Source of the DNA: a virus | Taxonomy: Duplodnaviria > Heunggongvirae > Uroviricota > Caudoviricetes | Reading direction: 5' to 3' (one strand) | DNA length: 64,000 nt | IMG/VR virus record: IMGVR_UViG_3300026549_000033 | Location: 64,001 to 128,000 of that record | Shown here: one piece after another, positions 15,221-43,230 of the stretch | How positions within the stretch are numbered: position 1 is the stretch's first letter | Layout: every line of letters starts with the position of its first letter | Program-made: the position numbers and the translations under genes | The notes under the pieces: generated by a model | Seen by the model: only the letters and a program-made list of their open reading frames with translations | Databases searched by the model: none | Told to the model about the DNA's origin: nothing

Positions 15221-15496
15221 GGGAAACCCTATCCTACAAGATAAGAGAGGATTTAAAAAGATGAAAAGATTTATTTTAATTTTAATTTTAGTTTTTGTTT
15301 TTATAGGATTTAATGAAGTAAGAAGTTTTAACAATTCAATAGATGAAAGCATTAAAGCATTAAATGATACAGTGCAAGCATGTACAATAGATATGCAAAA
15401 AGATAAAGATTTAATTTGTGATTAAATAACCTTGAATTTTAAATAAAGATATGATATAATAAGAATGTAAGCAAGTTAAGAAATGAGGTAAACAAA

Positions 15497-15793
15497 ATGA
15501 GCAGAAAAATTACAGAGATTATCACAAGAAAATTTATGAATGATGAATGTTACAGATTAAGCAATTCAGAAGTAAGAACAGATTTTAAAACAACAAGATT
15601 ATATTTATTCGGGAATTGCATAGCAAGGAAAGATAAGGAAAGCGGAAAGATTGAAGTAACACTTGCAGGGTATAACACAGCAACCACAAGAGAAAGATTA
15701 AACGGATTACCAAATGTAAGTATACGCAGTAAGAACTTCACCCCATACTTAAACGGACAAGAGATTGACTCTTGTGAATGGTACGCAGTATAA
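15497..15793 (+). CDS. Hypothetical early protein
   Basis: ORF behind a class A repeat. Confidence 0.8.
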   Translation: MSRKITEIITRKFMNDECYRLSNSEVRTDFKTTRLYLFGNCIARKDKESGKIEVTLAGYNTATTRERLNGLPNVSIRSKNFTPYLNGQEIDSCEWYAV

Positions 15794-15806
15794 AAAATTT
15801 AAATCC

Positions 15807-15835
15807 CTTTGCCACCACAGGCAGAGGGATTTTTG
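15807..15835 (+). terminator. Intrinsic terminator
   Basis: AAATCCCTTTGC-loop-GCAGAGGGATTT followed by a T tract. Confidence 0.75.
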
Positions 15836-15856
15836 TTTATAGGGTATTTATTTATT

Positions 15857-15985
15857 CCCACCCCATTAAGATTTAATTCCCATAGAGAGTGCCATCCCAT
15901 TTCGATTGCCTCAGCACTCAATAACTGTAACTGTTTTCGAGGGTTATACCTATATGAAAGTTTTCTATGATTTTGATTTTTAATT
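15857..15985. repeat. About 130-bp non-coding element, copy 1 of 3 (others 18747-18876 and about 23375-23472)
   Basis: Shared blocks CCCACCCCATTAAGATTTAATTCCC, GATTGCCT, GAGGGTTATACC.ATATGAAA, GATTTTGATTTTTAATT. Confidence 0.8.
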
Positions 15986-16200
15986 ATGGGATAAAATAAC
16001 CTTGACAAATTTACATGGGCATGTATATAATAAATATAAATATATTTTTTATATACATGTAACTTTACAAACCTTTACAATAACCTTGCATTTATAAGCA
16101 AAAGCATGTATAATAGAAGTATAAAGAAAACCGAATAAGGAAATGCCTTCCACCTTATCAAATAGTAGAATAAAACGGACGGGCAGAAAAGGATAAAATC

Positions 16201-16539
16201 ATGTTAGAAAATTCAAACTTGTTAACCGGCGCAGTTGCAAAAGAAGTTAACCAACTTATTGAGGACTATGAAGACATCACCGCAAAAGCAAAAGACCTTG
16301 AAACGAGCAAAAAAGCAATATTAAAAAGACTTTTTGAACTAACTCAAACAGGAGTTAACGAAACAAATAAAGTAGTATTTAATATTGTAAATAACAAAGG
16401 CAGAATTTCAATAGCACCATCAAAGTTGCAAGAGCAAGCACCTGAATTATATGGAGTTATCTCTGGCATGGGTTTAGTTACCATCGGCGAGGATTATTTA
16501 ACCGTCAGAGGAATTAAACACAAAGGCAGTAGGACATAA
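16201..16539 (+). CDS. Hypothetical early protein
   Basis: 112-aa ORF with its own promoter and a longer non-class-A leader. Confidence 0.8.
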   Translation: MLENSNLLTGAVAKEVNQLIEDYEDITAKAKDLETSKKAILKRLFELTQTGVNETNKVVFNIVNNKGRISIAPSKLQEQAPELYGVISGMGLVTIGEDYLTVRGIKHKGSRT

Positions 16540-16738
16540 ATTATATTTTGTTTATCTCAATAAAAGAAAAGCCATGCAAAGCCAAGCATGGCTTTTTAGT
16601 TACTCTTATAAATAACCTTGACAAATTTACATGGGCATGTTCTCATAAACAACTTAACAAACCTTTACAATAACCTTGAATTTAAACCGTAAACATGTTA
16701 TAATAAGAATGTAAGATAAATAAATGAGGTAAACAAAC

Positions 16739-17044
16739 ATGGCTAAATTATTAAGACACACTTTAATCGTAGGACTTAACGACAAGGACACTAAAAAACA
16801 AGTCTGCACTTCAAACCACGCAAAAAAGGTTATTATGGACATTGTAGGCGACTGTACTATAACAGACGCAATCGGACACTACACGCATGAAGACGGTTCA
16901 ACAGTAAAAGAAAATTCCATCAAGGTTGAAATGTTATTCAAAGCGGATAATCAAGTTATAGACTATGCAAAGCAAATTAAAAAAGAATTCAACCAGGAAT
17001 CAGTAGCACTTGTAAAAGACTATATTGAAAGCACTCTAATATAA
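16739..17044 (+). CDS. Hypothetical early protein
   Basis: ORF behind a class A repeat. Confidence 0.8.
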   Translation: MAKLLRHTLIVGLNDKDTKKQVCTSNHAKKVIMDIVGDCTITDAIGHYTHEDGSTVKENSIKVEMLFKADNQVIDYAKQIKKEFNQESVALVKDYIESTLI

Positions 17045-17167
17045 TAGAATTCGGCTATGTGCAAGGGTTGAAAAATACCCTTGCATATCCACCTAAAAAA
17101 TAACCTTGAATTTAAAAACAAAATCATGTATAATAAGAATGTAAGATAAATAAATGAGGTAAATAAA

Positions 17168-17368
17168 ATGTCATACGGCTTATATTATGCAAATACTCTT
17201 CAAAAGGAAGAGCCTGAAACAATTAGCATGGATACTGTAAAATTTATTATAAATGACTTAATTAAGAATGATAAAAAAGTATACTATGAAAACATAGGGA
17301 AAGATAAAACACTATTTTCATGGTTAAATGGTAAAGGGACTTCCACAGTTATAATAAAACATGAATAA
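17168..17368 (+). CDS. Hypothetical early protein
   Basis: Class A repeat; stop codon is the TAA of the next repeat. Confidence 0.75.
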   Translation: MSYGLYYANTLQKEEPETISMDTVKFIINDLIKNDKKVYYENIGKDKTLFSWLNGKGTSTVIIKHE

Positions 17369-17434
17369 CCTTGAACACTAAAACAAAATCATGTATAATA
17401 AGAATGTAAGATAAATAAATGAGGTAAACAAAAC

Positions 17435-17749
17435 ATGCTGAAAATACAAAACAAAACTTATTTAACAAGTAATGAAGTATGCAAATATATAGCCTTTTTA
17501 CAAAGGACTTCCAGCGCTTATATATGTATATCTTATAAGAATTATGCAAACTTATTAAGGGAATACACTACACAGGAATACAGACAGGATAATTTTGATA
17601 TAATAAATATAAATAATACTTATTACTATAACTTTATATCTATATATCAATTTTTATTAAGTCTTAATCTAAAGACCTATAAAAGCCACGAAGTTATAAA
17701 AGACCATATTTATACAAGTCTTATGAACTTCAAGGACAATTTAAAATAA
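17435..17749 (+). CDS. Hypothetical early protein
   Basis: Class A repeat; stop codon inside the next repeat. Confidence 0.75.
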   Translation: MLKIQNKTYLTSNEVCKYIAFLQRTSSAYICISYKNYANLLREYTTQEYRQDNFDIININNTYYYNFISIYQFLLSLNLKTYKSHEVIKDHIYTSLMNFKDNLK

Positions 17750-17816
17750 CCTTGAACACTAAAACAAAATCATGTATAATAAGAATGTAAGCAAGTTAAG
17801 GAATGAGGTAAACAAA

Positions 17817-18035
17817 ATGCAAATTGACAGAACTGAAAGTTTAGAACACACAAATTTTAAAATGTTTTTAGCAACAGTAAGAATGTTATCAAACTCACAA
17901 GGATTTTATTCCAGAATGCAAAGGACAATAGATGAATGGACGGATGCAGAATTTGAACAGGCAAGGGAATATTTTAATAATCTTCCGCAAAGGTTCAATG
18001 ACACAGTAGATGTTGTAATGTTCTTAGAGCAATAG
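17817..18035 (+). CDS. Hypothetical early protein
   Basis: Start reassigned to the ATG after the GAGGT RBS. Confidence 0.8.
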   Translation: MQIDRTESLEHTNFKMFLATVRMLSNSQGFYSRMQRTIDEWTDAEFEQAREYFNNLPQRFNDTVDVVMFLEQ

Positions 18036-18114
18036 AAAAAAAAATAACCTTGAACACTAAAACAAAATCATGTATAATAAGAATGTAAGCAAGTTAAGGA
18101 ATGAGGTAAACAAA

Positions 18115-18666
18115 ATGAAATATGAATTTGACGGAATTAGCACAGAGCAATTCAACGAACAGGATAAGGAATTATTCACAGAATACTATGACGGAACACT
18201 AATTGAAAAAGATAATTTCACCGTAGAATTAGATAGTAAAGAAGTAAAATTGCACCTTTATATTGAACACATAGACATGTCAGAATACGAAGACACAGAT
18301 GACCAAATTATATCCATCGGGGTTGTACCAGCTTTTGAAAGTTTATCAGAAAAACATCAACAGGATATTTTAGGACAATTCACAGAAGACGACCAAGAGT
18401 ATTTTAAAAACCACACAGATGAGTTATTGCAAGACTCTATCTCTTATGGGTTCGGGATTACCTTGAGAAGTGAAACTGTAAAGGAAGACGACGTAGAAAA
18501 TAAAATAAATTCAGCAATAGCAGTAAGACACTCAGTATCAGGCTTAATAGGGTTTGAGCTAGATAGATATGTAAACCGTATTGGTAACACAGGATGGGAT
18601 TTCTTAGCTGATTATTGTGAAGACCAAGATTTAATAAAATCAGCTATGGCAAGATTTAAAAAATAA
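18115..18666 (+). CDS. Hypothetical acidic early protein
   Basis: Start reassigned to the ATG after the GAGGT RBS. Confidence 0.8.
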   Translation: MKYEFDGISTEQFNEQDKELFTEYYDGTLIEKDNFTVELDSKEVKLHLYIEHIDMSEYEDTDDQIISIGVVPAFESLSEKHQQDILGQFTEDDQEYFKNHTDELLQDSISYGFGITLRSETVKEDDVENKINSAIAVRHSVSGLIGFELDRYVNRIGNTGWDFLADYCEDQDLIKSAMARFKK

Positions 18667-19000
18667 TTACTCTCTCTCTCTTAACTTCAATTACTTTATA
18701 GGGTACTACTCACCGCAGTAGTACCTCTTTGTTTTGGGTTTTTACTCCCACCCCATTAAGATTTAATTCCCTGTAGAGAGGAGCCAACCCATAACGATTG
18801 CCTACTCCTCAATAATAACTTAACTTTCAGAGGGTTATACCCATATGAAAGATTTGATTGATTTTGATTTTTAATTCCGAGCCTATTTAACCTTGACAAA
18901 TTTACACAGGCATGTTCTATGGATCCATGCCTGTTAATAACCTTGCACATACTTTATAAATCTATTATAATATAAGTATAAAAAGAAAGAGGAAAAACAA

Positions 19001-19267
19001 ATGGAAAATATGACACTTGAACAGGAACTAACGGCAAGAATTTTTGTGCATAAGGTAGCAGTAGTCGGCGGAGTACTTATGAAAGACTATATCGACCGCC
19101 AACATGGTGAAGTAAACTTGCCGGAATTTACAGTAGAAGAACAGGCAGACCAATACTCAAATGAAGTTATCCAAAAGGCTATGGCAGACGGTACTTTTGA
19201 AGACCTATACCACAGAGCATGGGAAAGTATAAAAAACACACTTGACGAAAATACAAAAGTTATATAA
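19001..19267 (+). CDS. Hypothetical early protein
   Basis: ORF behind a TAACCTTG promoter. Confidence 0.8.
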   Translation: MENMTLEQELTARIFVHKVAVVGGVLMKDYIDRQHGEVNLPEFTVEEQADQYSNEVIQKAMADGTFEDLYHRAWESIKNTLDENTKVI

Positions 19268-19336
19268 TAACCTTGAATTTAAATACAAGGTATGTTATAA
19301 TAAGAATGTAAGCAGTTAAGAAATGAGGTAAACAAA

Positions 19337-19702
19337 ATGAAAGTTAAAGAACTTATTAAACAATTACAAGAACTTCCACAGGAAGACGATATTGTTATCA
19401 CGGCTATGGACGACCACTTTTTTGAAACCGAGTTTGAAGTACATAGTCCTTATGAAGACGGACAAGCACAGGAAATTATAATAAATGCCTACATGAGAGA
19501 AGATGCAGTCATCTCAAGAGAAGAACCCGAAGAAGAAATTGTAACTATACAGGACTTATGTAAACTCTTGACGGCTGAAAATTTAGCAGACTTTTTGCAA
19601 GAGTACAATAAATATGTACAGGAATTCCACGAAACACATGACACAGGCTCAACTCCTGTATCAATCATGGAATTTTACAATAATGACTATTTTGAAGTAT
19701 AA
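19337..19702 (+). CDS. Hypothetical acidic early protein
   Basis: Class A repeat; MKVKELIKQLQELP start typical of small phage proteins. Confidence 0.8.
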   Translation: MKVKELIKQLQELPQEDDIVITAMDDHFFETEFEVHSPYEDGQAQEIIINAYMREDAVISREEPEEEIVTIQDLCKLLTAENLADFLQEYNKYVQEFHETHDTGSTPVSIMEFYNNDYFEV

Positions 19703-19864
19703 CCTTGAACTTATAAAAGAAATCTGTTATACTAATAATGTAAGCAGTTAAGAAACGAAGACTAATAGTCGACGGACCGTCGAGCAAGGGGCGTACGGTT
19801 GACGCTAGCAATACACTGTGCGTCCCTCGTCTGTCCAAATTAAGAAAACAAAGAGGTAATAAAC

Positions 19865-20113
19865 ATGAACTTATCAGAATTTTGCAACAGGGTATACAAT
19901 AACTATAACTTATATGGAACAACGGAATGCACAGTAGACAACTACAAGTTAGAAGTTGAATACACAGACGCTAATGAAGAGCACTGGCGTTGCTATGAAA
20001 TCACCTTAACAGATACAGACTATAACAGTGTAATTTTTCAAGGTCACGTAGATACAGATAATAAGGCACTTCTATTCAAACTTATTGAAGCATGTTATTC
20101 TCTAATGAAATAA
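19865..20113 (+). CDS. Hypothetical early protein
   Basis: ORF behind a promoter with an inserted structured leader. Confidence 0.75.
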   Translation: MNLSEFCNRVYNNYNLYGTTECTVDNYKLEVEYTDANEEHWRCYEITLTDTDYNSVIFQGHVDTDNKALLFKLIEACYSLMK

Positions 20114-20184
20114 CCTTGACTCTAAATACAAAATATGTTATACTAATAATGTAAGCAGTTAAGAAATGAAATGAGGTAAACAAA

Positions 20185-20712
20185 ATGACAAAGAAACACA
20201 CAACAATATGGAAATCCTACGGTATGTATGACCTAAAAGAAATGGAACAGGCAGAACAGGATGCAAGAGAACACTTGAAAGAAAATGACTTTGAAGACTG
20301 GGAAACCGTAGATGTTACAGACACTATATATGAAGACATAGACATGTGGTTTGAGGATGAGCAATCCAACTTATTCAGAATACTTGACGGCAGAATTTTA
20401 TGTATAGCAGACATGGGCTTATGGAACGGCAGAAGAACAGGCTACAAAATCTTAGGCAATAACCTTAATGAAGTCTTAACATGTGGAATAGGATGCGACG
20501 AAAAAGAAATCTATTGCGACGCATACAATGTATATGCAACAGGATACCACCACGACGGCAGAAACCATGTAGAATTCAGAGAAATAAGGGAAGACAGAAA
20601 CATTGACAACTTAACAGATAAACTCTATTCAGGCATGCCTGTTACACGCAGAGAAATAAACTACTATACAAAATCTTTAAGACCTTATGTAAAACAAGTT
20701 TACGGAATTTAA
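20185..20712 (+). CDS. Hypothetical early protein
   Basis: 175-aa ORF behind a class A repeat. Confidence 0.85.
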   Translation: MTKKHTTIWKSYGMYDLKEMEQAEQDAREHLKENDFEDWETVDVTDTIYEDIDMWFEDEQSNLFRILDGRILCIADMGLWNGRRTGYKILGNNLNEVLTCGIGCDEKEIYCDAYNVYATGYHHDGRNHVEFREIREDRNIDNLTDKLYSGMPVTRREINYYTKSLRPYVKQVYGI

Positions 20713-20901
20713 TATTTTACCTCATTATATAAAGAGCCATACCCATACAGGCATGGCTTTTCTTTATACCCAAAATAACCTTGACAAATTTACATGGGCA
20801 TGTTCTAATCTTTTCTTAACATTTCTTATAAATAACCTTGAATTTGACATACTTATATGTTATACTAATAATGTAAACAGTTAAGAAATGAGGTAAACAA
20901 A

Positions 20902-21153
20902 ATGACAAACACATTTAAAAACGACAACGGACAGGAATTCAATGTTATTAGTGTATTAGAATTCAACAAGACAGATGCAGACTACTTCAAGAACTCATGG
21001 CAGAAACACAGAGCCATGCTACTTGAAAGAAATCAAGAATATATTGTAGCATCTTATGTTGGTGAAAGCTCATGGGGATATGGCTACTATGCAGACGGCA
21101 TCAAGGACGCAACCAAAAAATTTAATAGTATAATGGCAGACTATACAAAATAA
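20902..21153 (+). CDS. Hypothetical early protein
   Basis: Class A repeat. Confidence 0.8.
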   Translation: MTNTFKNDNGQEFNVISVLEFNKTDADYFKNSWQKHRAMLLERNQEYIVASYVGESSWGYGYYADGIKDATKKFNSIMADYTK

Positions 21154-21225
21154 CCTTGAATTTAAAAACCAAATCATGTATAATAATAATGTAAACAGTT
21201 AAATAAAAGAAATGAGGTAAACAAA

Positions 21226-21714
21226 ATGTTAGTATCAAAAGAAATTTCAGATTTTTACGAATTAAAAGACAATTCATGGTCAGGTGCTTTAGACACTTTA
21301 GCAGACATTGAAAACGCAGGAAAAGAAGACGAACTCATGCAACACTTAGAAGAAGTCTTTGCAGACGGTGAAACACCAACAGAAACCACTGTTAATGACT
21401 ACTTATGGCATGACAGAGAATATGTATATGAAGCACTTGGCTTGACTTCAAACGGTGAAATCCCAACAGAAGTTGACAAAGCAAGAGAAGACAACGCAAA
21501 TTGGCATGTATCTATTACAGAAATTAAAAAGTCAGGACTTTTTGAACAATCTTTAATTGACTACATTATTGATATGATACAGACCGACGAAGACGAAGAT
21601 GGCAATCCTGTATATGACGAAGATGAAACATATTGGATGGACTTTGAAGAATTGGAAAACAATTCAAACGAAGTAACAGAAGACCAAATCGAATGGCTTA
21701 ATGCTAATGGGTAG
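21226..21714 (+). CDS. Hypothetical acidic early protein
   Basis: Class A repeat. Confidence 0.85.
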   Translation: MLVSKEISDFYELKDNSWSGALDTLADIENAGKEDELMQHLEEVFADGETPTETTVNDYLWHDREYVYEALGLTSNGEIPTEVDKAREDNANWHVSITEIKKSGLFEQSLIDYIIDMIQTDEDEDGNPVYDEDETYWMDFEELENNSNEVTEDQIEWLNANG

Positions 21715-21816
21715 AGGATTTCTCTACCCTTTCAAAATAACCTTGAATTTAAAAACAAAATATGTTATACTAATAATGTAAGCAGTTAAGAAACAAAAAG
21801 AAATGAGGTAAACAAA

Positions 21817-22311
21817 ATGAGTTGGACTACAGAATTTTTAGAAAGCAGTGCTTTCAAAGTAAAACACCCAAAGGAAGTAAAACAAGTATTGGAACTTATG
21901 GGCTTTAGTGTTGACACCCATGATAATCAAATTAACTTCTACTCTACGGATAACGAATACTTTGATGAAGACACAGAAGTTGTACTATCTCTAAAGCCTA
22001 TCACAGTTGAGGGAAAAGAAGAACCTACAAATATTATAGGTATTATTTCAGACAGTTGCATGGAAAGTGTGGACCTAGAAGAACTTGAAAAGGACACATA
22101 CATGGTACAATCTATAACAGAATATTTACAGGATGAACTCACAGACGAAAAACAATATATTACTATAATGAATGTTGGCTTTGAGGGAAGAATAAGCGGA
22201 AACTATAACCCTTTTGGTGATTTAACTTTCATAACTAAAAACACTGTGAAATTTTCTTCACTATGGGCAACCGAACAACAATTCAAAAAAGAATGCGGAA
22301 TTACAGAATAA
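21817..22311 (+). CDS. Hypothetical early protein
   Basis: Class A repeat; stop codon inside the next repeat. Confidence 0.85.
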   Translation: MSWTTEFLESSAFKVKHPKEVKQVLELMGFSVDTHDNQINFYSTDNEYFDEDTEVVLSLKPITVEGKEEPTNIIGIISDSCMESVDLEELEKDTYMVQSITEYLQDELTDEKQYITIMNVGFEGRISGNYNPFGDLTFITKNTVKFSSLWATEQQFKKECGITE

Positions 22312-22377
22312 CCTTGAATTTAAATACAAGATATGTTATACTAATAATGTAAGCAATAAAGAAATGAGGTAACAATT

Positions 22378-22770
22378 ATGGTAACAGAATTAGAAAAACA
22401 ACTTATTCAAATAGGACAAAGAATTACAGACGGAACGGCAGACTATGATGACTTATTCACTTTACAAAGCCACAAAAGAGAAGTATTAGAAATGGGCGAC
22501 ATTGTATTATGTGAACAGGCAGGAATTACAGAAGAAGAATACAACAAAGGCGAACTCAATCCCGAATTATTATTCAAAGAAAACTTTATAAGACTTGAAA
22601 TAGACCAGGACTATGAAGGGAATGCCTTTTGTACTATTAAACTTGACGACGAACAGGAACTCACTATTACAGAAGACGAACTCTTGAACCTTAGAAAAAT
22701 CTTGAATGAAAACTTTGATGAGATACAGGAATATTTTCACCAAATTTATTTAAGATTTAGAGAACAATAA
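22378..22770 (+). CDS. Hypothetical early protein
   Basis: Class A repeat; stop codon inside the next repeat. Confidence 0.8.
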   Translation: MVTELEKQLIQIGQRITDGTADYDDLFTLQSHKREVLEMGDIVLCEQAGITEEEYNKGELNPELLFKENFIRLEIDQDYEGNAFCTIKLDDEQELTITEDELLNLRKILNENFDEIQEYFHQIYLRFREQ

Positions 22771-22844
22771 CCTTGAATTTAAAAACAAAATCATGTATAA
22801 TAATAATGTAAGCAGTTAAGAAACAAAAAGAAATGAGGTAAATT

Positions 22845-23225
22845 ATGGCAGACACAATTTTTGACAAAATTATTTTCAGTGCATTAGACGAAGAAGTTGT
22901 AAACAACGGATACGGAAATTGCCAAAAATATGAAGTAGAATTAAACTACAACGGAAGAACTTATACAACACACTATACTGATTCAGTAATGGCTTATAGA
23001 AATGGAGAAGACTTAGACTTTAGACAAGTTATGGAATGTTTATTATTGGACAAATCAGCATACGATAGTTGCAGAGATATAGATGACTTCCAAGCAGAGT
23101 TTGGATATGAAAAAGTAAGTGAATGCTTAAAGGCATACAACGGATGTAAAGAAACTTCCGAAGGACTTGAAAGACTATTCACAGAAGAAGAATTGGAACA
23201 ACTTCAGGAAGAAATCAACGATTAA
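22845..23225 (+). CDS. Hypothetical early protein
   Basis: Class A repeat. Confidence 0.8.
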   Translation: MADTIFDKIIFSALDEEVVNNGYGNCQKYEVELNYNGRTYTTHYTDSVMAYRNGEDLDFRQVMECLLLDKSAYDSCRDIDDFQAEFGYEKVSECLKAYNGCKETSEGLERLFTEEELEQLQEEIND

Positions 23226-23262
23226 ACTTGACAGACTTATAAATATACGATATAATTATAGT

Positions 23263-23336
23263 AGCAGTTGTTTACCTCAATAAACTTAATTGCTAAGAAA
23301 GAGATAGGACTACGGAACCCCTATCTCTTTTGTTTT
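23263..23336 (+). ncRNA. Candidate antisense sRNA against the shared class A leader
   Basis: TTGACA(23228)-17-TATAAT promoter, no ORF, hairpin with CCTCAA loop, two blocks complementary to the class A leader, 11-bp terminator. Confidence 0.7.
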
Positions 23337-23643
23337 GGGATTTTCTGCCACACCCAAGAGAGCCACATTTCGCGAGAAGCCAACCCATCATGATTGCCTG
23401 CTTCTCATATATACTTTAACTTTCGAGGGGTTAAACCTATATGAAAAATTCCTATGATTTTGATTTTTAATTATGAATGATTTTTATATTTGACTTTCCA
23501 AAAGTTATAACCGAAGTTATGGAAATAACCTTGACAAATTTACATGGGCATGTTCTCAGATCCATGCCTGTTAATAACCTTGAACATGCAAGGGTAATCT
23601 GTTATAATATAAATGTAAGCAATAAAGAAATGAGGTACAAACT

Positions 23644-24570
23644 ATGACAACTTTCACAGACGAAAATTTTACAGGTTACGAATTCAGATGCACAACTGCA
23701 TCAGGAAACACAGGCTTTAAACATATATGCGAAGTCTACAAAAATAATGAACCAATAGACTCATGCATGTCTGTTATAAACTGGGGTAACAGGACTTGGG
23801 AATCCTTCCAATATGCCACAGTATTACAGGACTCTAAGGATAAACTCACAAACCTATTAGACGGTATTGAAAAACCCGAAATAGACTATAACTTCCTATC
23901 CAAATTAGTGGAACAGGATATTATAACAGACTACGGAGAATTAGAGAATGGTGAAACTGTTATAATGTTTGACACTTGGGAACAGGTTGAAGGTAAAGAC
24001 GAAAGAACCTATGTAGAAGGTGAAGGAATGGTGAAGACAGGAAACTTCATTAAATCCCCTTATGCTAAATTAAGAGACTTAGCGGAGAAGGGATTACTTA
24101 AACCTTCAGTTCAACTTACTATAGTTAATGTAGAATATGTATTCACAGACCAATTCATGAAATGCGATGACTGCGGAAGAATTTTTGATTACACTTGGGG
24201 CGACCTTACTTATGTAGAAGAAGAAGGAATGATGCTCTGTGATGATTGCATAAATTCAGAATACAGAATTGAACCTTTGATTGAAAGAGCTAAGGATGAT
24301 TTAAGACAGGCTCTTAAACCAACAGTTGACCAATCTATAATAGAAGGATTAGGATACTCTTTAATTGAAGGTGATAACTTCTCCTTTGCACCTGACAGAT
24401 ACTTTGTAAATAATGTATCAGAAGAATGGGTAGATAAATTTATACATAAGTATAATGGATTTGTTCAAATCTATCAGGTAGAACAATTCGATTGTCCTTT
24501 CCAAATTTGGGTACCTTCGGAAGTATTAGAGAAGGCTCAAAGAGAAGTAGATTTTAAATTTAATAGATAA
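23644..24570 (+). CDS. Hypothetical protein with CxxC pairs
   Basis: 308-aa ORF, last class A gene. Confidence 0.85.
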   Translation: MTTFTDENFTGYEFRCTTASGNTGFKHICEVYKNNEPIDSCMSVINWGNRTWESFQYATVLQDSKDKLTNLLDGIEKPEIDYNFLSKLVEQDIITDYGELENGETVIMFDTWEQVEGKDERTYVEGEGMVKTGNFIKSPYAKLRDLAEKGLLKPSVQLTIVNVEYVFTDQFMKCDDCGRIFDYTWGDLTYVEEEGMMLCDDCINSEYRIEPLIERAKDDLRQALKPTVDQSIIEGLGYSLIEGDNFSFAPDRYFVNNVSEEWVDKFIHKYNGFVQIYQVEQFDCPFQIWVPSEVLEKAQREVDFKFNR

Positions 24571-25919: not shown

Positions 25920-25982
25920 TAACCTTGAACATAAATACAATACATGTTATAATAATGGTATAAAGCAAAGGAGTTAAAACTT

Positions 25983-30795: not shown

Positions 30796-30813
30796 CTTGA
30801 AAGGAGTTACACT

Positions 30814-34300: not shown

Positions 34301-34359
34301 CACAACCTATTAAGCAAGATATGAGCTTGGCTTGGATAGATAAGTACACACGGAGATAA
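31351..34359 (+). CDS. Block of hypothetical class B genes (31351-31569, 31749-32111, 32177-32464, 32532-33317, 33404-33874, 33946-34359)
   Basis: ORFs behind class B repeats or their RBSs. Confidence 0.8.
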
Positions 34360-34363
34360 ACTT

Positions 34364-35182
34364 ATGACACAAACTATACAGGAAGTATTTAAACAATTTT
34401 GTAAAGAAAGACACGCAGAGGACAAAGGAAGAAATCATGACCTCTTGCAAGAAGTCTATGCAAGTACGGAATTCTTTGATACAACCTTGTATAAATTTGT
34501 AGGTATAGAATATGACTTTGACAAATTCAATAGCAGAACCTACATGGCTTACTTCTCCACAGAAGACTTATGTATTCCTTTTCAAAATAACTTTATTAAA
34601 ATAGAAGAAAACAAATACATATTCTTGAGAGAGTATGCCCCTGATATCCTGACAGGCACAATGTTTATACCTAACTACATAGACAAAGTATCTTTAAACA
34701 TTCCCTTTAGGATAGAAATAGGAGAGAAAACCTCTGTAATTATATCAGACTTTTATGTAGATATATTAAAAGATAGAATAGAAAGAATAGTCAGAGACTT
34801 ATTTGTAATAGTTATATCAGTATGTAAAACCTTAAGCGAACTTTCAAAGAAGTCTGTAGCCGTTGATAAACCTTCAAATCCAAACCTATGTGAATACTAC
34901 AGAAGGAAAAGAAAACCCACAATTAAAATACCTCAAAGACCTATATATTATATTCTTGGAGAAAAGCATGAGAGTGTATCCGCAAAGTATAAATATATAA
35001 GAACTATAGGAAACTTAGAATATTCTTTTGCCTTCAAAGTTAGAGGACATTGGAGACATATTAACGAAGGAACTTTTGGAAAAGACCGCAACGGAAATTA
35101 TAATGTTAAAGGCTATACTTGGGTTACAGAATATACAAAGGGAGAAGGAGAACTCGCAAAAAGAATAAGAGTTATAGAATAA
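34364..35182 (+). CDS. Conserved phage hypothetical protein
   Basis: C-terminal FKVRGHWRH...WV..YTKG motif seen in phage proteins. Confidence 0.7.
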   Translation: MTQTIQEVFKQFCKERHAEDKGRNHDLLQEVYASTEFFDTTLYKFVGIEYDFDKFNSRTYMAYFSTEDLCIPFQNNFIKIEENKYIFLREYAPDILTGTMFIPNYIDKVSLNIPFRIEIGEKTSVIISDFYVDILKDRIERIVRDLFVIVISVCKTLSELSKKSVAVDKPSNPNLCEYYRRKRKPTIKIPQRPIYYILGEKHESVSAKYKYIRTIGNLEYSFAFKVRGHWRHINEGTFGKDRNGNYNVKGYTWVTEYTKGEGELAKRIRVIE

Positions 35183-35242
35183 CCTTGAACATTAAAAAGT
35201 TATCTGTTATAATATAAATATACAAAACAAAAGGAATATACT

Positions 35243-38200
35243 ATGAGAAACAAATCAGAATACATTAACAACAGAATTGAAAAACTTTTTGGAAAAGTCG
35301 GAAGACGTAAAGGAGACTTTTATTGTTATGGCTCGTCTATTGCAGAAGTTGTAAATGACGGTGGCGGTATTCATATTGTACTCACAGGAAGAACTACTAC
35401 AGACTTAATAGAAAAACTTGATGCAATAAACGACTATATGAACTTTAAAAAGTATCAAGAAAGCAAGTCGCCCGAAGAAAGCATATAGGCAGAACCCGCA
35501 CAGTACTTGGCTTTCCACAGGTGAAACCTAATCAAAAAATTTCATGAAATTTTGAAATTTATATAAGGACAAAATAACCTTGAACTTAAATAATAAATCT
35601 GTTATAATATAAATGTAAACAGAACAAAAGGAGTTAAAATCATGACAAAAGGAATTACAAACAGAGTTAAAATTCAGAAGTTTATAGACGTTCTTAATAC
35701 TCTGACCTTTGAAGAAGTTACGGAAGAAAATCTTAAAAAAGCACTTCCAAATTCAAGAGTGGACTTTGTGAATAAGGTTGAAGAAGACATGACTGACATT
35801 TCAATAGACGACTATACCTTTACTATTCACAAAAAAGTAATAGGTGAAAAATACCCTATAGAATGGGTACTTATTGGAGCAGACACAGACCACCCATATT
35901 TCTTATCTGACTATGTAGAAGTTTACCTTCCTATACAAGAAGACGATAGTACCATGTATTGTGAAATACAAGCTGAAGGCTACATTGAACCACATAATTC
36001 GGGAAAAGAATTTTGGCTTAGACTTCATTTCTACAATAATTAAAAATAACCTTGAACTTAAATAATAAATCTGCTATAATATAAATGTAAACAGAAAAAC
36101 AAAAGGAGTTAAAATCATGTTATTAGGAACATTTTTGACAGACGTAGACAAAGCATACGACTTTCTACAATTAACTAAAAAAGAATTCTTGGAAAGCTAC
36201 TCATACTTAACAGAACAAGAATACGACGAAACAAATGCTGAATTCTTATCAGATAAAACAGGAAACTTGGCAGAACTCATGAGGGATGCTGAAAACATGC
36301 TTATCGAAGAAAACACATATTTTGACAATGAAGATACAAACCCATACAGAGGTGCAACAGTAACAGGTGAACAACTTAAATCAGCCGTATACTGTTATAC
36401 CGTAGAACACTTAAACAAAGAGGAACAACAGGAATTTGAAGAAATATGTGAAGACATGGGTTGTTAAAATAACCTTGAACATACAAAGAAAACCTGTTAT
36501 AATATAAATATAAACAGATAAAACAAAGGAATGGAAGGGAATATTCGCCCCTTTGGAGTATAGCGACAGGTACTCACATTCCCTTATACAAAACAAAAGG
36601 AGTTAAATCATGGAAAACAAAATTGAAATTATTATGTCTGATTCAAATGATAACGACATAAACATAGAAGAAGACTTTGAAAAAGCCGTAGAAAGACTTT
36701 ACGAAGTAGACAAAGTATTTACAAGAGACGAAGTACAAGAAATGCTATACAAAGCAAGAGCTATTGCTGAAAACTTGGACGTATTAGAAAAACAAGCCTA
36801 TCAAGAAGGTAAAGAAACACAAGCTGAAATAGATGGTAAACCTATGAATGAACAATGGATACAGGATTCAAAAGAAATCCCAAATACAAAACGTATCCTT
36901 ATTGATATAGACTGTGCTTACGACGAATTCTATCTTATGCACGATAAAGACAACCTTCTTCCAAATTCTTGCAATTCTGTAGAAGTTGTAACAAAAGAAG
37001 TTGCAGAATCTAACGACAGAGACATGGATGCTACAGAGGACGAAGAAAATTATAAGGTAGGAGAAGGTCTCTCATACTACAGAGAACTTGGAGACAGTGG
37101 CTACTACTTTAGGTTTATGTAAAGGAGTTGTACTATGAACAAAGAAGAATTATTTAGAAAAATTAAGAACTTTTCAAGAAATGACAATGGCAGAATTATT
37201 CTCGGTGATATCCTTGAACTTCGCATATCAGAAGACGGAGAAAACCTTGACGTTTATAAGTACACTAACTTAGACAACGTAAATATTGAAGAATATGACT
37301 TTGACGGAGACTATATAACTTCAATATATCTCAAATAATCCCGAACGGTAATAAAAGTACAAATCAGATAATATATTATCTAAAATATGCCCGAACGGTA
37401 ATAAATAGCTAATATATTATCTATAATAAAATAACCTTGAACATACAAATCAAATCTGTTATAATATAAATGTAAACAGAAAAACAAAGGAGTTAAAATC
37501 ATGGCAGTAATTTTAAAAGACACAGACGTTAAAGAAACAAATTCAAAGTATGGCTATGTCGTAGAAATGTTTGACACAGTAGAAGACTTCAAAGGCTATA
37601 TCAGAGAAGAACTCTTAAATATTAGAAGAAATCTTAGAACTGACGGCATGGAAGACGAGGAATTAGATACTTTAATAGAAAAGAACTTATCAAATTGGAG
37701 CTTTGCTACCTTGTATAACAAATACAAAGAGTATAACTTTGCGTATGAGTTTGAAATCATATAAGGAGATAAGACATGACAAAGAAATGCCTATCAAATA
37801 AAGAATTTCAAGAGGTATTAGAACTCTTAGGAAAACAAGTTTTCCGAAATGGTACAATACACTATGTAGACCACTCAAAGAGATACCACTATGCCCTCTT
37901 TGTATATTTCCCCGAATATTCTGAAAAAGTACTTGACGTTATGGCAGATAAATTCGGAAGAAACATAGACTTTGAAACAGTACATGTACCAAACAAGGAC
38001 TTTTCAAAGTCTGAAATAGAGGACTACACAGAAATTTATAAATTAAACAACAGATTCACAATTACAGAGCAAACACCCATACTTGAATTAAAAGTGCGTG
38101 GGTATATTAACGAATACAAATAAGGAGTTAAAATCATGAAAAAAGAATATACATCAACAGTAGACGGACTTATAGAAGTACTCACAAAAATTAAAGAAAA

Positions 38201-40613
38201 ATGCGGTGGAGACACTTATGTTCAAGTCAATGTCATAGGCGGAGAACGTGCCACAGGCTTAGTATCAATATGCTTAGATAATGACGAAGGTAATGACAAT
38301 GCCTTAGTTTACTTAGAAACAGACATAGAAGAAAACTATTGCCCTAATACGTTTGAATTCTATACACAAGGGAAAGAAATCTAAGAATAACCTTGAACAT
38401 TAAAATAAAATCTGTTATACTATAAATGTAAATAATAGGAGTTAAATCATGACAGAAAAAGTCAAATATAGCTATGCTTATGACAAAGAAAACGACTTGG
38501 TAACAGTTAGTAAAGTTAGCACTTTTCATTTTACACATTATCATCGAGACCTTCTATTACAAGCTCTTTCTAATGGTTATGTAGAAATACGAGGAAAATT
38601 TTTAGAAATTGAAGAATATTCAAAGGCATATCGAGACCTCACTCAATACAATCTATTGAAAAATGACTTAGACGGATGGTATGACACAGGAACTATAATT
38701 AACAAAGAAGAATCTATAAAACTTATAAAATCCTACACCGAAGAAATCTAAGAATAACCTTGAACATTAAAATAAAATCTGTTATACTATAAGTATAAAG
38801 AGTTAAAACAAAGGAGTTAAAATCATGACAACAGAAACAATTCTTAAATTAAATCCCGAAACTTTAATATTTGACGTATACAACGACAAATATTTCTATG
38901 ATAAGGGTACTAAGAAAACACAGTACGAATCTTTTTATGTAGATATTACTACAGAAGTACCTGAAATGGAAGGAGAAAGAAAAGTAGCTACAGTAATGGT
39001 ACAATGTAACGACCACGTGGATGTACTTTACAACGACCAATATATCGTGGACGTAGTAACTTATGACCTTGCTACACAGGAGATTAACGGACAAGTAGAC
39101 CAATCAAGATACGACCGTCAAATGAACGTAGTAGACGGCTTAGAATTGCCTAAAATAGACAACATAACAGTAAACGGAGACACTTTAGACGACTACATTA
39201 TCCGTATGCTGAAAGTAGTCTTTATGGCTTTCTCAAATAAAAATATGTATAACCCCGAAAAATACGAGCTTAAAGTAGGTTATGACAAACAAGAACCAAA
39301 GAAAATCAGACATAGAGGTTGCTTTGCATGGGAAGGTTGCCATAAAATCTACTTATGTCAAAATATGGGAGATATTCAACTCATGTTGGCTTACGGCTAC
39401 GATATTTACCCTATTGAACAACTTAGAACAGTATGGAAGAACTCTTGCTCATTAAGGTTTATACACCCTGTAAACCTTAAAAACGACGATATATTGCCAC
39501 AGTTTGCTAAGTACCCAAAAATTATAGGACATAGAATAAAATAACCTTGAACATTAAAGTAAAATCTGTTATACTATAAGTATAAAGAGTTAAAACAAAA
39601 GGAGTTAAAATCATGACAACAGACTTAAATTACACAAACACTTTCATTCGCTACAACTATGAAGACGAAGACGAAATGGTAGAAGTATATCATGGTGAAT
39701 TAGAACTATACAATGAAACTACACAATTTTACCATAATACCTTTGCTGACGAAGAAGACTACGACGAAAACAAAGAATATACAAATGTGTTAGACTGCGT
39801 AGACCTTTGGGAAGGTAACGGTTACGGCATAGCACAAGTTATTAAAGGAAGATACTAAAATGACCTACGAAGAATTGGCATATACTATTCATATCTTAAT
39901 GGCTGACGGCTATGTTAAACAAGAGAAACCTCTATGGGATCTGGATATGTATAGAATTTTAAATAAAGTAAATAAAGACATAGGAACTTACGAAAGAGAC
40001 AAATAAAATGGCACACGAATTAGAAAAAGAATTACAACAAAGAATTATAAGTCATAAAAATATTGTAATAACTTCTTCTCTTATTATGTTTGAAAACGAA
40101 GGAATATATAATTCTTTCCTACTCAAAGATAAGTACGGAGACGACAAAACTACAGAAAGAGGACAGGGAAGAGCCTTTAAAGTAGTAGACGAACTCGAAG
40201 AACAAGCAGACCAAGAAACATACGACCAAATTTATGAAATGTGCTGGCAAAGAGCCAAACATAGAATATCAGATAGGTTATATGGAATAAACTAATAACC
40301 TTGAACGACACAAGTAAATATGCTATAATAATAGTATAAGAACAAAGGAGTTAAAATCATGACAACAGAATTAAAAGAAATTAAAGTTGGAGACCTCGTT
40401 CTTCTGAAATCTATAGAAGAATATGAAGACGAAGGAGACGAAATCACAGAATTAGTAGAAAAATTTGCGGGAAACACAATGAAAGTTTTACGAGTTGACC
40501 AAAGTCTTAATGAATTCGGTGAAAGAACCTATCAACTTGTCGCTTTAAACAGGGAAGTAGGATTCATAACGGCTACAGACCACGAAATCGCAAAAGTTTA
40601 CAGAGAAATATAA
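35243..40613 (+). CDS. Block of hypothetical class B genes (35243-35488, 35642-36043, 36117-36467, 36610-37122, 37135-37338, 37501-37764, 37776-38123, 38136-38384, 38449-38751, 38825-39544, 39613-39858, 40008-40295, 40359-40613)
   Basis: ORFs behind class B repeats or AAGGAG RBSs. Confidence 0.8.
36526..36583 (+). promoter_or_regulatory. 58-bp structured leader element, copy 2
   Basis: Identical to 28811-28868, again between the -10 box and the RBS. Confidence 0.75.
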
Positions 40614-40625
40614 GGAGACACCACA

Positions 40626-41030
40626 ATGAGTACAAGAAGTGATATAATCATTAAAGACTACGGAATTTATGAAGGAAAAACATGGAAAATGCAACAAAAA
40701 CTATACCACCATCACGACGGTTATCCCGAAGGAGTAGGTGCCTTCTTAATCCAAGAAGTCCTTCCGCAATTAGAAAATTCTAATGATGCGTCTTGCGATA
40801 CGATTGCTAATTTTTTGATTAAGCATAAAGAAGATAACGAATTTGAATGCACAGTGTATAACCATGTAGATATTGAATACCGCTACATAATTGATATTCC
40901 AAAGAAAGAAATAAGATGCCTTGAAGGACACTACACAAATTGGAATTCCCCACGAACAAGATTTATAACTGACCGAGAAATTGATTTATCAAAATTCAAA
41001 TCAGTTAAAGCCGAAGAATTATATAAATAA
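40626..41030 (+). CDS. Conserved phage hypothetical protein
   Basis: MSTRS.I...LYHHHDGYPEGVG motif. Confidence 0.75.
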   Translation: MSTRSDIIIKDYGIYEGKTWKMQQKLYHHHDGYPEGVGAFLIQEVLPQLENSNDASCDTIANFLIKHKEDNEFECTVYNHVDIEYRYIIDIPKKEIRCLEGHYTNWNSPRTRFITDREIDLSKFKSVKAEELYK

Positions 41031-41059
41031 CAATGATATTTTAACTCCCAAATTACAAT

Positions 41060-41091
41060 GTTCAGAGCCAAAAGACTCTGAACTTCTTTTT
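41060..41091 (+). terminator. Intrinsic terminator
   Basis: GTTCAGAG/CTCTGAAC followed by TTCTTTTT. Confidence 0.75.
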
Positions 41092-41154
41092 AAATAAATT
41101 TATGATTATATTTTTATAAGTAGAGAGTATGGTTTAAATTAAGAAGGAGAAAGC

Positions 41155-43230
41155 ATGGCTAAAAAAATTGTTGGTAAAAATGGAAAGAAAGAAACTTATT
41201 TTAATAAGTATGTTATAGGTGATAATAATGTATGCCCCGAATGTCATAGACCGTTCAAAGACTATGACCTCAAGAATATTGAAGAAAGAGGTACAATTTC
41301 CTGTGTTAAGTGCGGAGCAAAATTAAGCAGAAAATAACCTTGAACTTTCATATCAAAAGTGGTATAATAAAAGTATAAAAGATACTAAATAGGAGACACC
41401 ACCAATGATGGACACATACTCAGTTGAATATTGGACAACGGACGGCACAAGAGTAGGAGTACAAATTCAAGCATACTCCTCATACGATGCACAGAGATAT
41501 GCAGAACAAATGCCAAACTTTGATATATTGGCATCTTTCCCTGAAAAAATTGCATCAGGCTAAATTTTATTTTAACTCATTTTGTTTTGACAACTCCTTC
41601 CTTTTATGCTACAATTAAGTTGTAAATAGGAAGGAGTTCTTTTATGTTACAATCAAATAGAGAGAAAGAGATATCTAAAGCAGATATGCGTAAAAAAGTA
41701 GAGGCATGGAAAACAATTAACAGTGTTCTTGTGAAAGCTAATGCAGACTACATGAATTCTTTAGCAAGCCTACTTACCGAAAAGCAAGTGCAATTATCAC
41801 AACTTGAAGAAAAGCTAAAAGGTGAGGGAGCTACAGAAGAAGACAATGCAGAGTACTTATTTCAAGCAGGATATACCCAGTGCTTAAAGGATATCTTAAA
41901 TGCCAAGAAAACCACGCAATCCTAAACGAGATAAGCCTTCGAGTAATCCTTTGAATAACTTAGACTTGTCTGCTTTCTTAGAACCCAAAAAAGACACCAA
42001 AACCACCAAAAAAGAAACTTACAAGGGGTTACAAAAAGAATACGAAAGAATTCTCCATAAAGAAATTCAAAGAGAAAATAGAGCCTATAGAGTAGTTTAT
42101 ATGAACCATCCTGAACTACTCTATGTTGCTTTTAGTAGTAACAGGGAAAATGCTAAATGGCAATCAGCAAAGTACTTTAAAGAAACTTTAAATCCGTTCT
42201 TTACTAAAGACAGTTATAATAAAGAAATGATGAATAGCCGTGCCTACAGGGTACAGGAACTTGATAAGTTTGCTTTAAAAGGAGTTATCCCTATCCCTGA
42301 CTTACTACATGCTCTTGACGTTTCTATGCCCTGTTCTGTTTGCGGAAAAGACCATTTTGACTACTCCGACTATGAAAAGGGAAGGTGCTTTATTGTAGAA
42401 GGAGAAGGAAATCTGAACCCTTTTACACAAGGTTATATCTTATGTTACGAATGTCATAAAAAATACTTAGGAAAGAATTAAATAACCTTGAACATGACCT
42501 AAAAATTCTATATAATATAAGTATAGAAACAAACAAAACAGGAGATAAAATGTCATACATCACATCAAATCTTGCTCCTTATCGTAGCAAGGATATAGGA
42601 AAAGAATTTTCAGAAATATTGGCAGAAGACTATGAATGGGTACGCTCCTCTATAGAAGACAGAGGAATAATCTTTTTCTTAGCTACCGTTTCTGTTATGA
42701 CCTTATCTTTACTTAAGGCTATTTCACACGTCATAACTCAAATGCAGAAACCTGTAATGGAATATAATCACTTGAAATTACATAGAGGTATGGAATCTGA
42801 ATCCATTACTCAAATTCTCACAAGGAGAGAGTGCATAGACGAAGTGAAAAACCATGACAATCTATGCCCAAATAATAAGGTTAAAACCGAGAAAGTAGAA
42901 AAACTAAATACTTTGAGAAACTACTTATATCAGCATGACTTAACCCTTCATGCTACCGTACTTAAAACCATAAATCATAAACTCACAGACGACGAGCTTA
43001 TTGAAATGTATAGGTTAGGTGAAATCACTAAACCTTTAACAACTACTCATATCACCTTTGGAGATAACTTAAATCGTCTATTAAAAGATACCTTAGGAAA
43101 TACTATTGATTTAAAAACAAATCGTGTAACAAAAGAAACCTATCTTAGAATTTTCAACGACGATTATATGCCCATCAAAGAAGGATTACAGAATTTATAC
43201 AATGAAAAAGTAAAGCTCAAATTTGACTAA
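41155..43230 (+). CDS. Hypothetical genes 41155-41337 (zinc ribbon), 41405-41563, 41644-41925, 41900-42481 (CxxC pairs), 42550-43230
   Basis: ORFs with RBSs; 41405-41563 (52 aa) is not in the track. Confidence 0.75.

Follow-up and report, generated by a model that had tools for sequence, protein, structure and literature searches.

Promoter-leader units as probable sites of cassette recombination in a gene array of an uncultured rumen phage

The window analyzed here is a 64,000-nucleotide (nt) stretch of a tailed phage genome (Caudoviricetes) which corresponds to bases 64001–128000 of the IMG/VR record IMGVR_UViG_3300026549_000033. It contains an array of small genes that follow one another behind near-identical copies of a repeat, and the repeat carries a promoter, a leader and a ribosome-binding site (RBS). 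The question raised by this locus is whether the repeat serves only to express the genes or whether it also determines where genes enter and leave the phage genome. A preliminary description, made from the sequence alone, had proposed that the stop codons of the genes are part of the next repeat and that the array is a recombination-driven accordion of host-takeover or anti-defence genes, comparable to the modules bounded by PeSL repeats in T4-type phages. The comparison with relatives presented below indicates that the array is probably an early accessory gene bank which is shuffled by homologous recombination at the promoter-leader units, in the manner of PeSLs but without their stem-loop. 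Coordinates of the features are given in Table 1.

The repeat unit and the packing of genes against it

The 8-mer TAACCTTG has 54 exact matches in the window, compared with 2.95 ± 1.66 expected; none of 100 shuffled sequences had more than 7. The + strand holds 48 of the 54, and 47 of these lie within positions 15427–42490, in agreement with the earlier manual count of about 48 repeats. Across the 195-kb genome there are 54 forward and 13 reverse matches, and 45 of the forward ones crowd into the 80–105 kb region of the genome. Two − strand matches inside the array span (31499 and 42435) fall in coding sequence and look like chance occurrences.

The 8-mer constitutes the upstream edge of a promoter together with the first bases of its −35 box. 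The full unit is (A)AAA-TAACC-TTGAAC, followed by 17 nt and TATAAT or TATACT, mostly with a TG ahead of the −10 box at positions −15/−14. Beyond the −10 box there is a conserved initial transcribed stretch (ATAAATGTAAACAG...), then the leader, a strong Shine-Dalgarno sequence and the ATG, and the distance from the TAA of the motif to the ATG is 61–81 nt. Most copies score at least 10 out of 12 against the sigma-70-like consensus TTGAAC-17-TATAAT, and the unit appears to be a sigma-70-type promoter. The layout of promoter, RBS and gene that was described previously is thus borne out by the −35 and −10 boxes, the Shine-Dalgarno sequence and the ATG of the unit consensus.

Exact identity between two copies spans 15–40 bp in most pairs, and the exact runs range from 15 to 77 bp. 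Copies 17747 and 18045 are at the upper limit; neighbouring copies had been said to be identical over up to 73 bp, and these two are identical over 77 bp, 73 of which are counted from the TAA onwards. The leaders are of two kinds. The class A leader, found at 15.4–23.6 kb, terminates in AATGAGGTAAACAAAATG and the class B leader, found at 25.9–42.5 kb, terminates in AAAGGAGTTAAAATCATG. Six of the 47 copies form a class C (TAACCTTGACAAATTTACATGGGCATGTTCT) with a perfect −35 box and a mostly poor −10 box. The class C copies are found at block boundaries; each is preceded by a terminator or non-coding DNA and followed, 35–84 nt downstream, by a normal copy.

All 16 open reading frame (ORF) ends that were listed in the preliminary description, from 17368 to 41337, coincide exactly with the TAA of the motif, and nine further ORFs stop 3–6 nt upstream of it. 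The statement that stop codons are part of the repeat is therefore correct for these 16 ORFs, but it does not hold in the sense of a dedicated device. Sixteen of 35 ends on the TAA is not significantly above the one-third expected for a frame-independent TAA (P = 0.087), and copies that no ORF reaches have the TAA conserved to the same degree. The real feature is a flush packing of genes against the next unit, not a special stop-codon device, and the pattern of stops in the repeat is due to tight packing against a motif that starts with TAA. TAACC is read here as a promoter (or homology) element that incidentally closes one reading frame. In one relative (G001, IMG/VR contig 3300028886_000103, 60.8 kb long and about 97.5% identical) an extra ORF enters the unit by six codons and stops at a TAA in the spacer, thus the A/T-rich unit closes more than one frame. 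A coupling of translation by way of the shared TAA was considered and rejected because the next ATG is 61–81 nt distant.

Cassette gain, loss and replacement among relatives

In addition to G001, nine further contigs (L154–L162), which come from rumen-type assemblies, were found by means of one extra protein of G001. There are at least nine metagenomic relatives that are 91–98% identical to the window, and the gene-order map shows that these have a collinear backbone in which whole cassettes are present or absent. Four sequences from other assemblies (L151, L152, L173 and L174) are identical to the window over parts of the array. A pattern scan of viral contigs yielded three related contigs only, and in a pattern scan of metagenomes the matches listed were single chance hits, with some similarity to the genome in only 3 of 118 loci. 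G002 stops short of the array and G003 covers just its last 6 kb; a search for relatives with the upstream flank protein found none. The genome of the window phage contains no copy of the extra cassettes that its relatives carry. L159 carries four cassettes unique to it, together with two diverged copies of the 22378-type gene in different parts of its array (709–1089 and 5460–5840).

The protein encoded just to the right of the array (43276–44265) was used as an anchor. It has 178 homologues, many of them on contigs of 180–216 kb. Arrays are present upstream of three anchor homologues (80%, 61% and 52% identity) and in these TAACC-TTG is kept and the class B leader is kept in part. The deeper relatives (52%–80% anchor identity) have a loose backbone in common with the window, many new ORFs and some changes of order.

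Breakpoints were determined from chained BLAST alignments of all pairs of seven sequences, and the 88 junctions collapse to about 20 distinct events. As the preliminary description had anticipated, cassettes are gained and lost with breakpoints in the repeat, and the outcome it named as a refutation, a fixed gene order without repeat-bounded indels, is not what the relatives show. Eleven of the approximately 20 events are in register inside the promoter unit. In the genome without the cassette, the two flanking alignments of such an event share 44–92 bp. The left-hand end of this overlap is at −2 to 0 of the motif, and the right-hand ends, all within the unit, are scattered from +43 to +92. 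Four more events show a 17–27-bp overlap in the leader/RBS repeat alone, without the 8-mer. The other events have one end in a unit or are not repeat-mediated. The units make up 13.8% of the array, and if 20 events were placed at random, the probability that at least 11 would both begin and end in units is 1.6e-14, with register ignored. Two of the eleven in-register events are in L159; the remainder are described in Table 1. In L154, the 81-aa (amino acid) ORF of the 35233–36044 cassettes is replaced by a 60-aa ORF.

Table 1. Positions of the array, its repeat copies and the cassettes that vary among relatives (window coordinates)
Feature	Position	Strand	Remarks
Whole array	15427..42563	+	47 TAACCTTG copies; ~60 small ORFs, all +; 78% coding; few terminators
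Class A sub-array	15427..23650	+	17 promoter repeats, leader ...AATGTAAGCAGTTAAGAAATGAGGTAAACAAAATG; split into blocks by terminators followed by class C elements
Class B sub-array	25920..42563	+	~23 promoter repeats, leader ...AAATGTAAACAGAAAACAAAGGAGTTAAAATCATG; single + strand terminator (41060–41083)
Class C element	15997..16027	+	TAACCTTGACAAATTTACATGGGCATGT...; other five at 16613, 18888, 20776, 23526 and 25110
Repeat copy	17743..17819	+	77 bp identical to 18041–18117, from promoter through ATG
Repeat copy	33333..33406	+	74 bp identical to 35571–35644 (copies 33337/35575)
90-aa ORF cassette	25964..26269	+	Present in window, L154, L155, L157; absent in G001, L156, L158; 44–59-bp overlap in promoter repeat
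121-aa and 82-aa ORF cassettes	19341..20108	+	Absent in L154; 75-bp overlap, offsets −2 to +72 of promoter repeat
164-aa ORF cassette	21821..22300	+	Absent in L156 (84-bp overlap in repeat); also missing in L154, L155, L159
95-aa ORF cassette	32180..32459	+	Absent in L156; 75-bp promoter-repeat overlap
81-aa and 133-aa ORF cassettes	35233..36044	+	Absent in L156; 54–86-bp overlap
100-aa ORF cassette	38433..38740	+	Absent in L156; 59-bp promoter-repeat overlap
Single repeat copy (unit 28148)	28132..28223	+	All relatives: extra cassette (97-aa and 56-aa ORFs, ~445 bp) between two copies; overlap 83–92 bp
Single repeat copy (unit 28429)	28427..28514	+	Relatives: extra 55-aa and 68-aa ORF cassette; some also an 87-aa ORF at a 22-bp leader repeat
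Single repeat copy (unit 35575)	35574..35645	+	G001, L158: extra 81-aa and 128-aa ORF cassette, 631 bp; overlap 72 bp
The four leader-repeat events			81-aa ORF at 26756; an 87-aa ORF; a 99-aa ORF; 1-kb deletion in L159 and L160
81-aa ORF within operon	26754..26990	+	Absent in L154, L155, L157; 25-bp leader/RBS micro-repeat overlap, no promoter involved
Orphan RBS (AGGAGACAAGACCAT)	33318..33336	+	53-aa ORF (151 bp) of all relatives missing at 33330/33331; deletion not repeat-mediated
Allele-replaced cassette ORF	35642..36043	+	85.5% identity to G001 (neighbours 97–99%); synonymous divergence (dS) 0.56 compared with 0.05–0.1
Two allele-replaced ORFs	22378..23225	+	dS 0.4–0.53, raised ~5-fold, compared with L154 and L156
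Intrinsic-terminator-like hairpins, block ends	15801..15832, 16566–16597, 18701–18726, 24914–24942, 41060–41083	+	The only ones on the + strand of the array
Isolated promoter copies outside array	10197..10204	+	Matching anatomy, before other genes/operons
Isolated promoter copies outside array	13228–13235, 49142–49149, 52958–52965, 60132–60139	−	Matching anatomy, before other genes/operons
101-aa ORF	16739..17044	+	S-adenosylmethionine lyase family PF23780, 27.9 bits (cut-off 28), borderline; DUF3574, 25.5 (cut-off 25)
272-aa ORF	34364..35182	+	AcrVA2-like (anti-CRISPR family) lead; ESM Atlas, AF2 model, VIA-align

Cassettes are also replaced by diverged alleles and moved. Blocks of divergence are limited to single cassette bodies, whose synonymous divergence is 5–10-fold above that of their surroundings, so that these were replaced as alleles. 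In the ORF at 35642–36043 the mismatches with G001 begin just past one unit and end just ahead of the next, and its synonymous divergence identifies it as an imported allele, not a product of fast protein evolution. ORFs 17168, 22378, 22845 and 27017 likewise display allele replacement in comparisons with other relatives. In L168, which is the relative with 80% anchor identity, the cassette termed X5 (83% aa identity) is flanked by the homologues of the 31749 and 32532 genes, and in G001 it comes after the 34364 and 35243 genes. Its presence in different slots indicates a move, not just gain or loss.

The proposed process is as follows. The array would be an early accessory gene bank of a large lytic phage, with one or a few orphan genes behind each unit. 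Judging from the consensus, the host primary sigma factor would read every copy, and because terminators are rare, successive transcripts should overlap and each gene should receive early transcription. As the units are alike over tens of bases, general homologous recombination could cross over between allelic or non-allelic copies, during replication or in a mixed infection. Within one genome the DNA between two direct copies would be deleted, perhaps by way of a circle; between co-infecting relatives cassettes would be inserted, swapped or replaced as alleles, and occasionally moved to another slot. In every recombinant the gene would still have its promoter and RBS, and the frame upstream would be closed. 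The deletions, insertions, swaps and moves are documented by the comparison of relatives, whereas the machinery behind them and a circular intermediate, if any, are inferred. The repeat steers recombination to safe, expression-ready sites.

Several considerations weigh against this explanation. Recombination is known here only through the comparison of relatives, all of which are metagenome assemblies, and four of the eleven promoter-repeat events come from one contig (L156). The early timing and the activity of the promoters are deduced from their sequence, and the 15–40 bp of exact identity shared by most copy pairs is short for some recombination systems. In addition, the density of indels between the window and G001 is no higher in the array (6 in 19 kb) than in the adjacent region of small − strand genes (5 in 21 kb), where there are hardly any repeats and no in-register junctions. 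The small − strand genes at 55349–62091 form a second variable region, with five replacement-type differences from G001 in 7 kb and no in-register repeat junctions. The equal variability of a repeat-poor − strand region means that the repeat channels recombination but is not needed for plasticity.

This similarity bears on a different explanation, which is that the repeat is a strong promoter class only, that illegitimate recombination occurs anywhere and that selection keeps those breakpoints which fall between genes. Some events do conform to it, e.g. the loss of 151 bp at 33330/33331 and a difference at 27468–27866, and the − strand region at 55–62 kb is equally variable although it has hardly any repeats. 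However, illegitimate joins filtered by selection would be out of register and leave partial or duplicated promoter fragments, whereas in the 11 in-register events one genome has a single copy of the junction sequence and the other has two. Selection on random breakpoints is thus an unlikely source of the pattern.

Homologous recombination must also be distinguished from a dedicated, integron-like site-specific system that cuts at the TAACCTTG core and moves cassettes as circles. The invariance of TAACC-TTG where the rest of the −35 box varies could be taken as a sign of such a core, as could the many overlaps which start at −2 to 0 of the motif. However, no tyrosine (PF00589) or serine (PF00239) recombinase match was found in the complete 195-kb genome, and the controls were positive in 14/14 and 12/14 genomes, respectively. 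The spread of overlap ends from +43 to +92 does not suggest a fixed cutting site, and four events need the leader/RBS repeat only. The 8-mer also heads isolated operon promoters, so that promoter recognition explains its conservation. A site-specific system is therefore very improbable.

Equally little credence is given to the possibility that the differences are artefacts of metagenome assembly, i.e. collapsed repeats or strain chimaeras. It is true that many contigs begin or end at a copy, that L156 alone has four deletions and that the L155 scaffold contains gaps. With at most 92 bp, however, the repeats stay below the k-mer sizes that the contig names show (k119, k141), and independent samples and pipelines yield the same main alleles. 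The 97-aa cassette was read on 24 contigs out of 26 index blocks, the 90-aa cassette is missing from two JGI assemblies and one ENA assembly, and the arrangement of the window at about 27.5–28.8 kb is found again in Logan contigs. Collapse also cannot yield extra unrelated ORFs that are under purifying selection.

A true genomic accordion as in poxviruses, where the same gene is amplified and contracted in tandem under selection, is the least probable explanation: tandem direct repeats could support unequal crossing-over, and the distant relative L170 has three ORFs similar to the 156-aa ORF at 30814 of the window, but no cluster contains more than one window ORF (the only pair, 29065/36117, is weak at 30% identity) and no duplicated neighbour cassette is seen in the relatives save the diverged second 22378-type copy in L159. 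The cassette ORFs are unrelated and nothing is amplified; as they are not paralogues, the term accordion, which had been used previously, is dropped.

Transcription, non-coding elements, carrier and cassette genes

About 30 class B promoters succeed each other over 15 kb without a terminator. A stem-loop with the character of a terminator or attenuator was looked for in the ordinary units and was not found. The 90-nt units have a mean minimum free energy (MFE) of −7.8 kcal/mol, compared with −11.0 for other windows of the array, and a mean z of −0.5. Class B units display a weak A/U-rich hairpin of 6–9 bp over the −10 box only, and strong hairpins at units are limited to 15997, 18888, 23526 and 25145. 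The promoter copy at 25145 (25145–25225, +) has a perfect 21-bp hairpin over the −10 box and the start region (MFE −23.6, z −4.6) which may represent an operator or an attenuator. This copy is in the stretch between the two sub-arrays (24570–25920), 1.35 kb that are nearly free of ORFs. The same stretch contains a perfect TTGACA-17-TATAAT promoter with TG at 24815 and the terminator at 24914–24942, and these two could produce another small RNA in addition to the one described below.

The isolated copies outside the array (10197, 13235, 49149, 52965 and 60139) display matching promoter anatomy, and the caveat in the preliminary description that the motif is also a general promoter class is well founded. 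By its sequence, the repeat would be a general host-sigma promoter class, presumably early, that is extremely dense in the array. TAACC-TTG is constant across the sub-clade and the rest of the −35 box varies by lineage, i.e. TTGAAC, TTGCAC, TTGACA/TTGAAA and TTGAAT (L168, L169 and L170 were read in their first 10 kb). A constant TAACC beside a variable −35 box suggests a recognition element of its own, to which a factor of the phage or of the host could bind.

Three elements of the array contain sequences complementary to the leaders. At 23228–23336 (+) there is a TTGACA-17-TATAAT promoter, behind which a free-standing RNA of some 75 nt is predicted; it would have a hairpin at its 5′ end and terminate intrinsically. 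The 5′ part of this RNA is complementary to the class A leader and RBS. The predicted duplexes with 14 class A leaders have energies of −21 to −29 kcal/mol, compared with about −9 for class B leaders and shuffled controls, and the element is kept in every relative that covers it (L151, L154–L157 and L159). The second element, at 41033–41091 (+), is in a 3′ untranslated region, where the class B leader complement ATGATATTTTAACTCCC follows a stop codon and precedes the terminator at 41060; despite differing flanks, G001 and L168 both retain it. The third, at 16545–16597 (+), is a one-mismatch complement of the class A leader ahead of the terminator at 16566. A tentative explanation for the uniformity of the leaders, and one that is doubtful at present, is that small RNAs of the phage complementary to leader and RBS silence the translation of a whole class, and that the need for identical leaders maintains the homology at which shuffling takes place. 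If so, a gene that enters the bank by recombination would come under both early transcription and timed silencing from the outset.

Two other non-coding elements recur. An element of about 165 nt is present in three copies on the + strand (~15826–15996, ~18722–18887 and ~23322–23490) with 79% column identity. Each copy comes after a terminator and before a class C element, and one internal helix co-varies between copies (GAGTGC/GCACTC, GAGGAG/CTCCTC and GAGAAGC/GCTTCTC). The other is a 58-bp insert that is 100% identical at 28811–28868 and 36526–36583 (+), in the leaders behind promoters 28769 and 36470. It has a closed two-hairpin junction fold of −18 to −20 kcal/mol, and a diverged form (GGAACGGAATATTCGCCCGTTTGG..ATAGCGA) is found in leaders of L168 and L169. 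Neither element has an Rfam match. The Rfam scan gave only tRNAs and a tmRNA at gathering score, and in the array nothing credible at E ≤ 1. These RNA genes are located just upstream of the array at 3149–6868 (+), where there are seven tRNA genes and a phage-borne tmRNA (5103–5512, 104.7 bits). One odd tRNA-like call in this cluster, at 6175–6262, has a two-base anticodon.

The source record is 195,221 bp long with a G+C content of 33%, and because its ends overlap by 127 bp the assembly of the record is complete and circular. The terminal overlap (G000:C1:1-127, equal to the last 127 bases) matches at 43, 85 and 127 bases and thus has an internal 42-bp period, which is probably a tandem repeat at the place where the assembly closes. 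The carrier is an uncultured rumen phage without a recognizable relationship to T4-type phages. With 24 kb and 21 kb of window sequence, Megablast found no match among 50,697 phage records of a cultured-phage collection, the Dda/RecD-like helicase has at most 36% identity to any cultured phage, and the terminase and tape-measure proteins have weak, distant PHROG matches only. The complete genome is without a match to Gp23 (PF07068) or the T4 portal (PF07230), which is a weak negative as the controls were silent too. On the type of carrier, the evidence points away from a T4-type phage. The host is probably a Gram-positive-type rumen bacterium. A weak hint in this respect is a 40%-identical relative (L171), the one copy returned by two scans of genome contigs, on a contig binned with a metagenome-assembled genome of an uncultured Clostridia; the TAACC extension is absent there.

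The approximately 60 array ORFs have a median length of 100 aa and a median isoelectric point of 5.0. In three relatives most of them show a dS of 0.03–0.15 and a nonsynonymous divergence (dN) near zero, and dN/dS is well below 1 for most, hence these are real genes. When 66 ORFs of the array and right flank were scanned, 7 matched Pfam and 15 matched PHROG, nearly all of these being families without known function. A PHROG search with the ten largest proteins of the array and flank gave no match, except for a metallo-phosphoesterase outside the array, and for the 308-aa and 261-aa ORFs the ESM Atlas offered no usable result.

Two ORFs offer functional leads. For the 272-aa ORF, the nearest ESM Atlas clusters score 0.97–0.98 and PF26125 (AcrVA2-like) is found on 29%–45% of their members. 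Its AF2 model has a pLDDT of 86. VIA-align of this model gives Z 7.4 to 7ci1_B and 7.2 to 7ci2_A, both of which are AcrVA2 crystal structures, over 160 residues with a root-mean-square deviation of 4.3 to 7ci1_B; the next unrelated fold scores 5.4. Foldseek against the PDB is not significant (E = 0.11), and there is no match by hidden Markov model or PDB sequence, where the Pfam copy searched may not hold PF26125. The 272-aa ORF is therefore no more than an AcrVA2-like lead, and the 101-aa ORF is a borderline candidate for an S-adenosylmethionine lyase. The host-takeover or anti-defence role that had been proposed for the array is a possible one, with these two leads and the generic profile of small acidic orphans behind it. 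The array and the alternates in its relatives provide a list of about 60 putative early genes for anti-defence and host-takeover searches, with one AcrVA2-like candidate already visible, and the repeat is a simple search key for such gene banks in metagenomes.

Comparison with known systems

Promoter-cassette recombination was previously described for T4-type phages of Gram-negative hosts (PMC2839356; PMC4122927), and a literature search returned only papers citing these. The PeSL measures about 100 bp, and its parts are the stop codon of the preceding gene, embedded in AT-rich sequence, sigma-70-like boxes, a stem-loop that acts as a terminator, and a Shine-Dalgarno sequence and ATG (PMC2839356). 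Arbiol, Comeau and Krisch (2010) located PeSLs where indels between RB49 and phi1 end, and demonstrated that PeSLs form mini-circles (PMC2839356), and Comeau, Arbiol and Krisch (2014) extended the findings to other T4-like pairs (PMC4122927).

The array unit is composite in the same way, with an upstream stop in its A/T-rich edge, sigma-70-like boxes, Shine-Dalgarno sequence and ATG. Like PeSLs, the units flank orphan ORFs and sit at the ends of indels or replacements between close relatives, and the homology is of 60–100 bp with crossovers spread from the −35 box to the ATG. In contrast to PeSLs, neither a stem-loop nor a terminator is found in the ordinary copies, which leaves the cassettes without transcriptional insulation. 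The array is also far denser and more regular (47 copies in 27 kb on one strand) and has two leader classes. Its carrier is without a T4 capsid or portal signature (by searches in which the controls were silent) or a nucleotide match to a cultured phage, and probably has a Gram-positive-type host. The comparison with PeSLs in the preliminary description is thus upheld for the mechanism, the repeat-end indels and all sequence features but one, the stem-loop. The array works like PeSLs, but strictly speaking its unit is not one: what is seen here is an array of promoter-leader cassettes without stem-loops, in what appears to be a different phage lineage. The stem-loop appears to be dispensable and the promoter-leader repeat alone enough.

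Large phages of Gram-positive bacteria offer a second parallel. The host-takeover module in the terminal redundancy of SPO1 has many strong early promoters and small, mostly acidic genes of unknown function that are oriented in one direction. The array is likewise a dense one-direction run of small, mostly acidic genes behind host-sigma promoters. Unlike the SPO1 module, the array is internal and not in a terminal repeat, its units are near-identical and recombination is documented by the comparison of relatives.

An analogy between PeSLs and integron cassettes was drawn by Arbiol et al. (PMC2839356). As in integron arrays, the cassettes here are ORF-sized, are bounded by a recurring site and vary in presence among relatives. 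In contrast to integrons, the phage is without an integrase, each cassette has its own promoter and there is no fixed crossover point. The morons of lambdoid phages are similar in that single accessory genes with their own promoter are located between backbone genes. However, morons have their own terminators and no shared flanking homology, whereas in the array terminators are rare and the shared regulatory unit is itself the site of recombination. The array therefore represents the same evolutionary device as the PeSL modules in an apparently unrelated, uncultured rumen lineage, where it is cleaner and denser and where it is seen in natural population data rather than in one pair of isolates.

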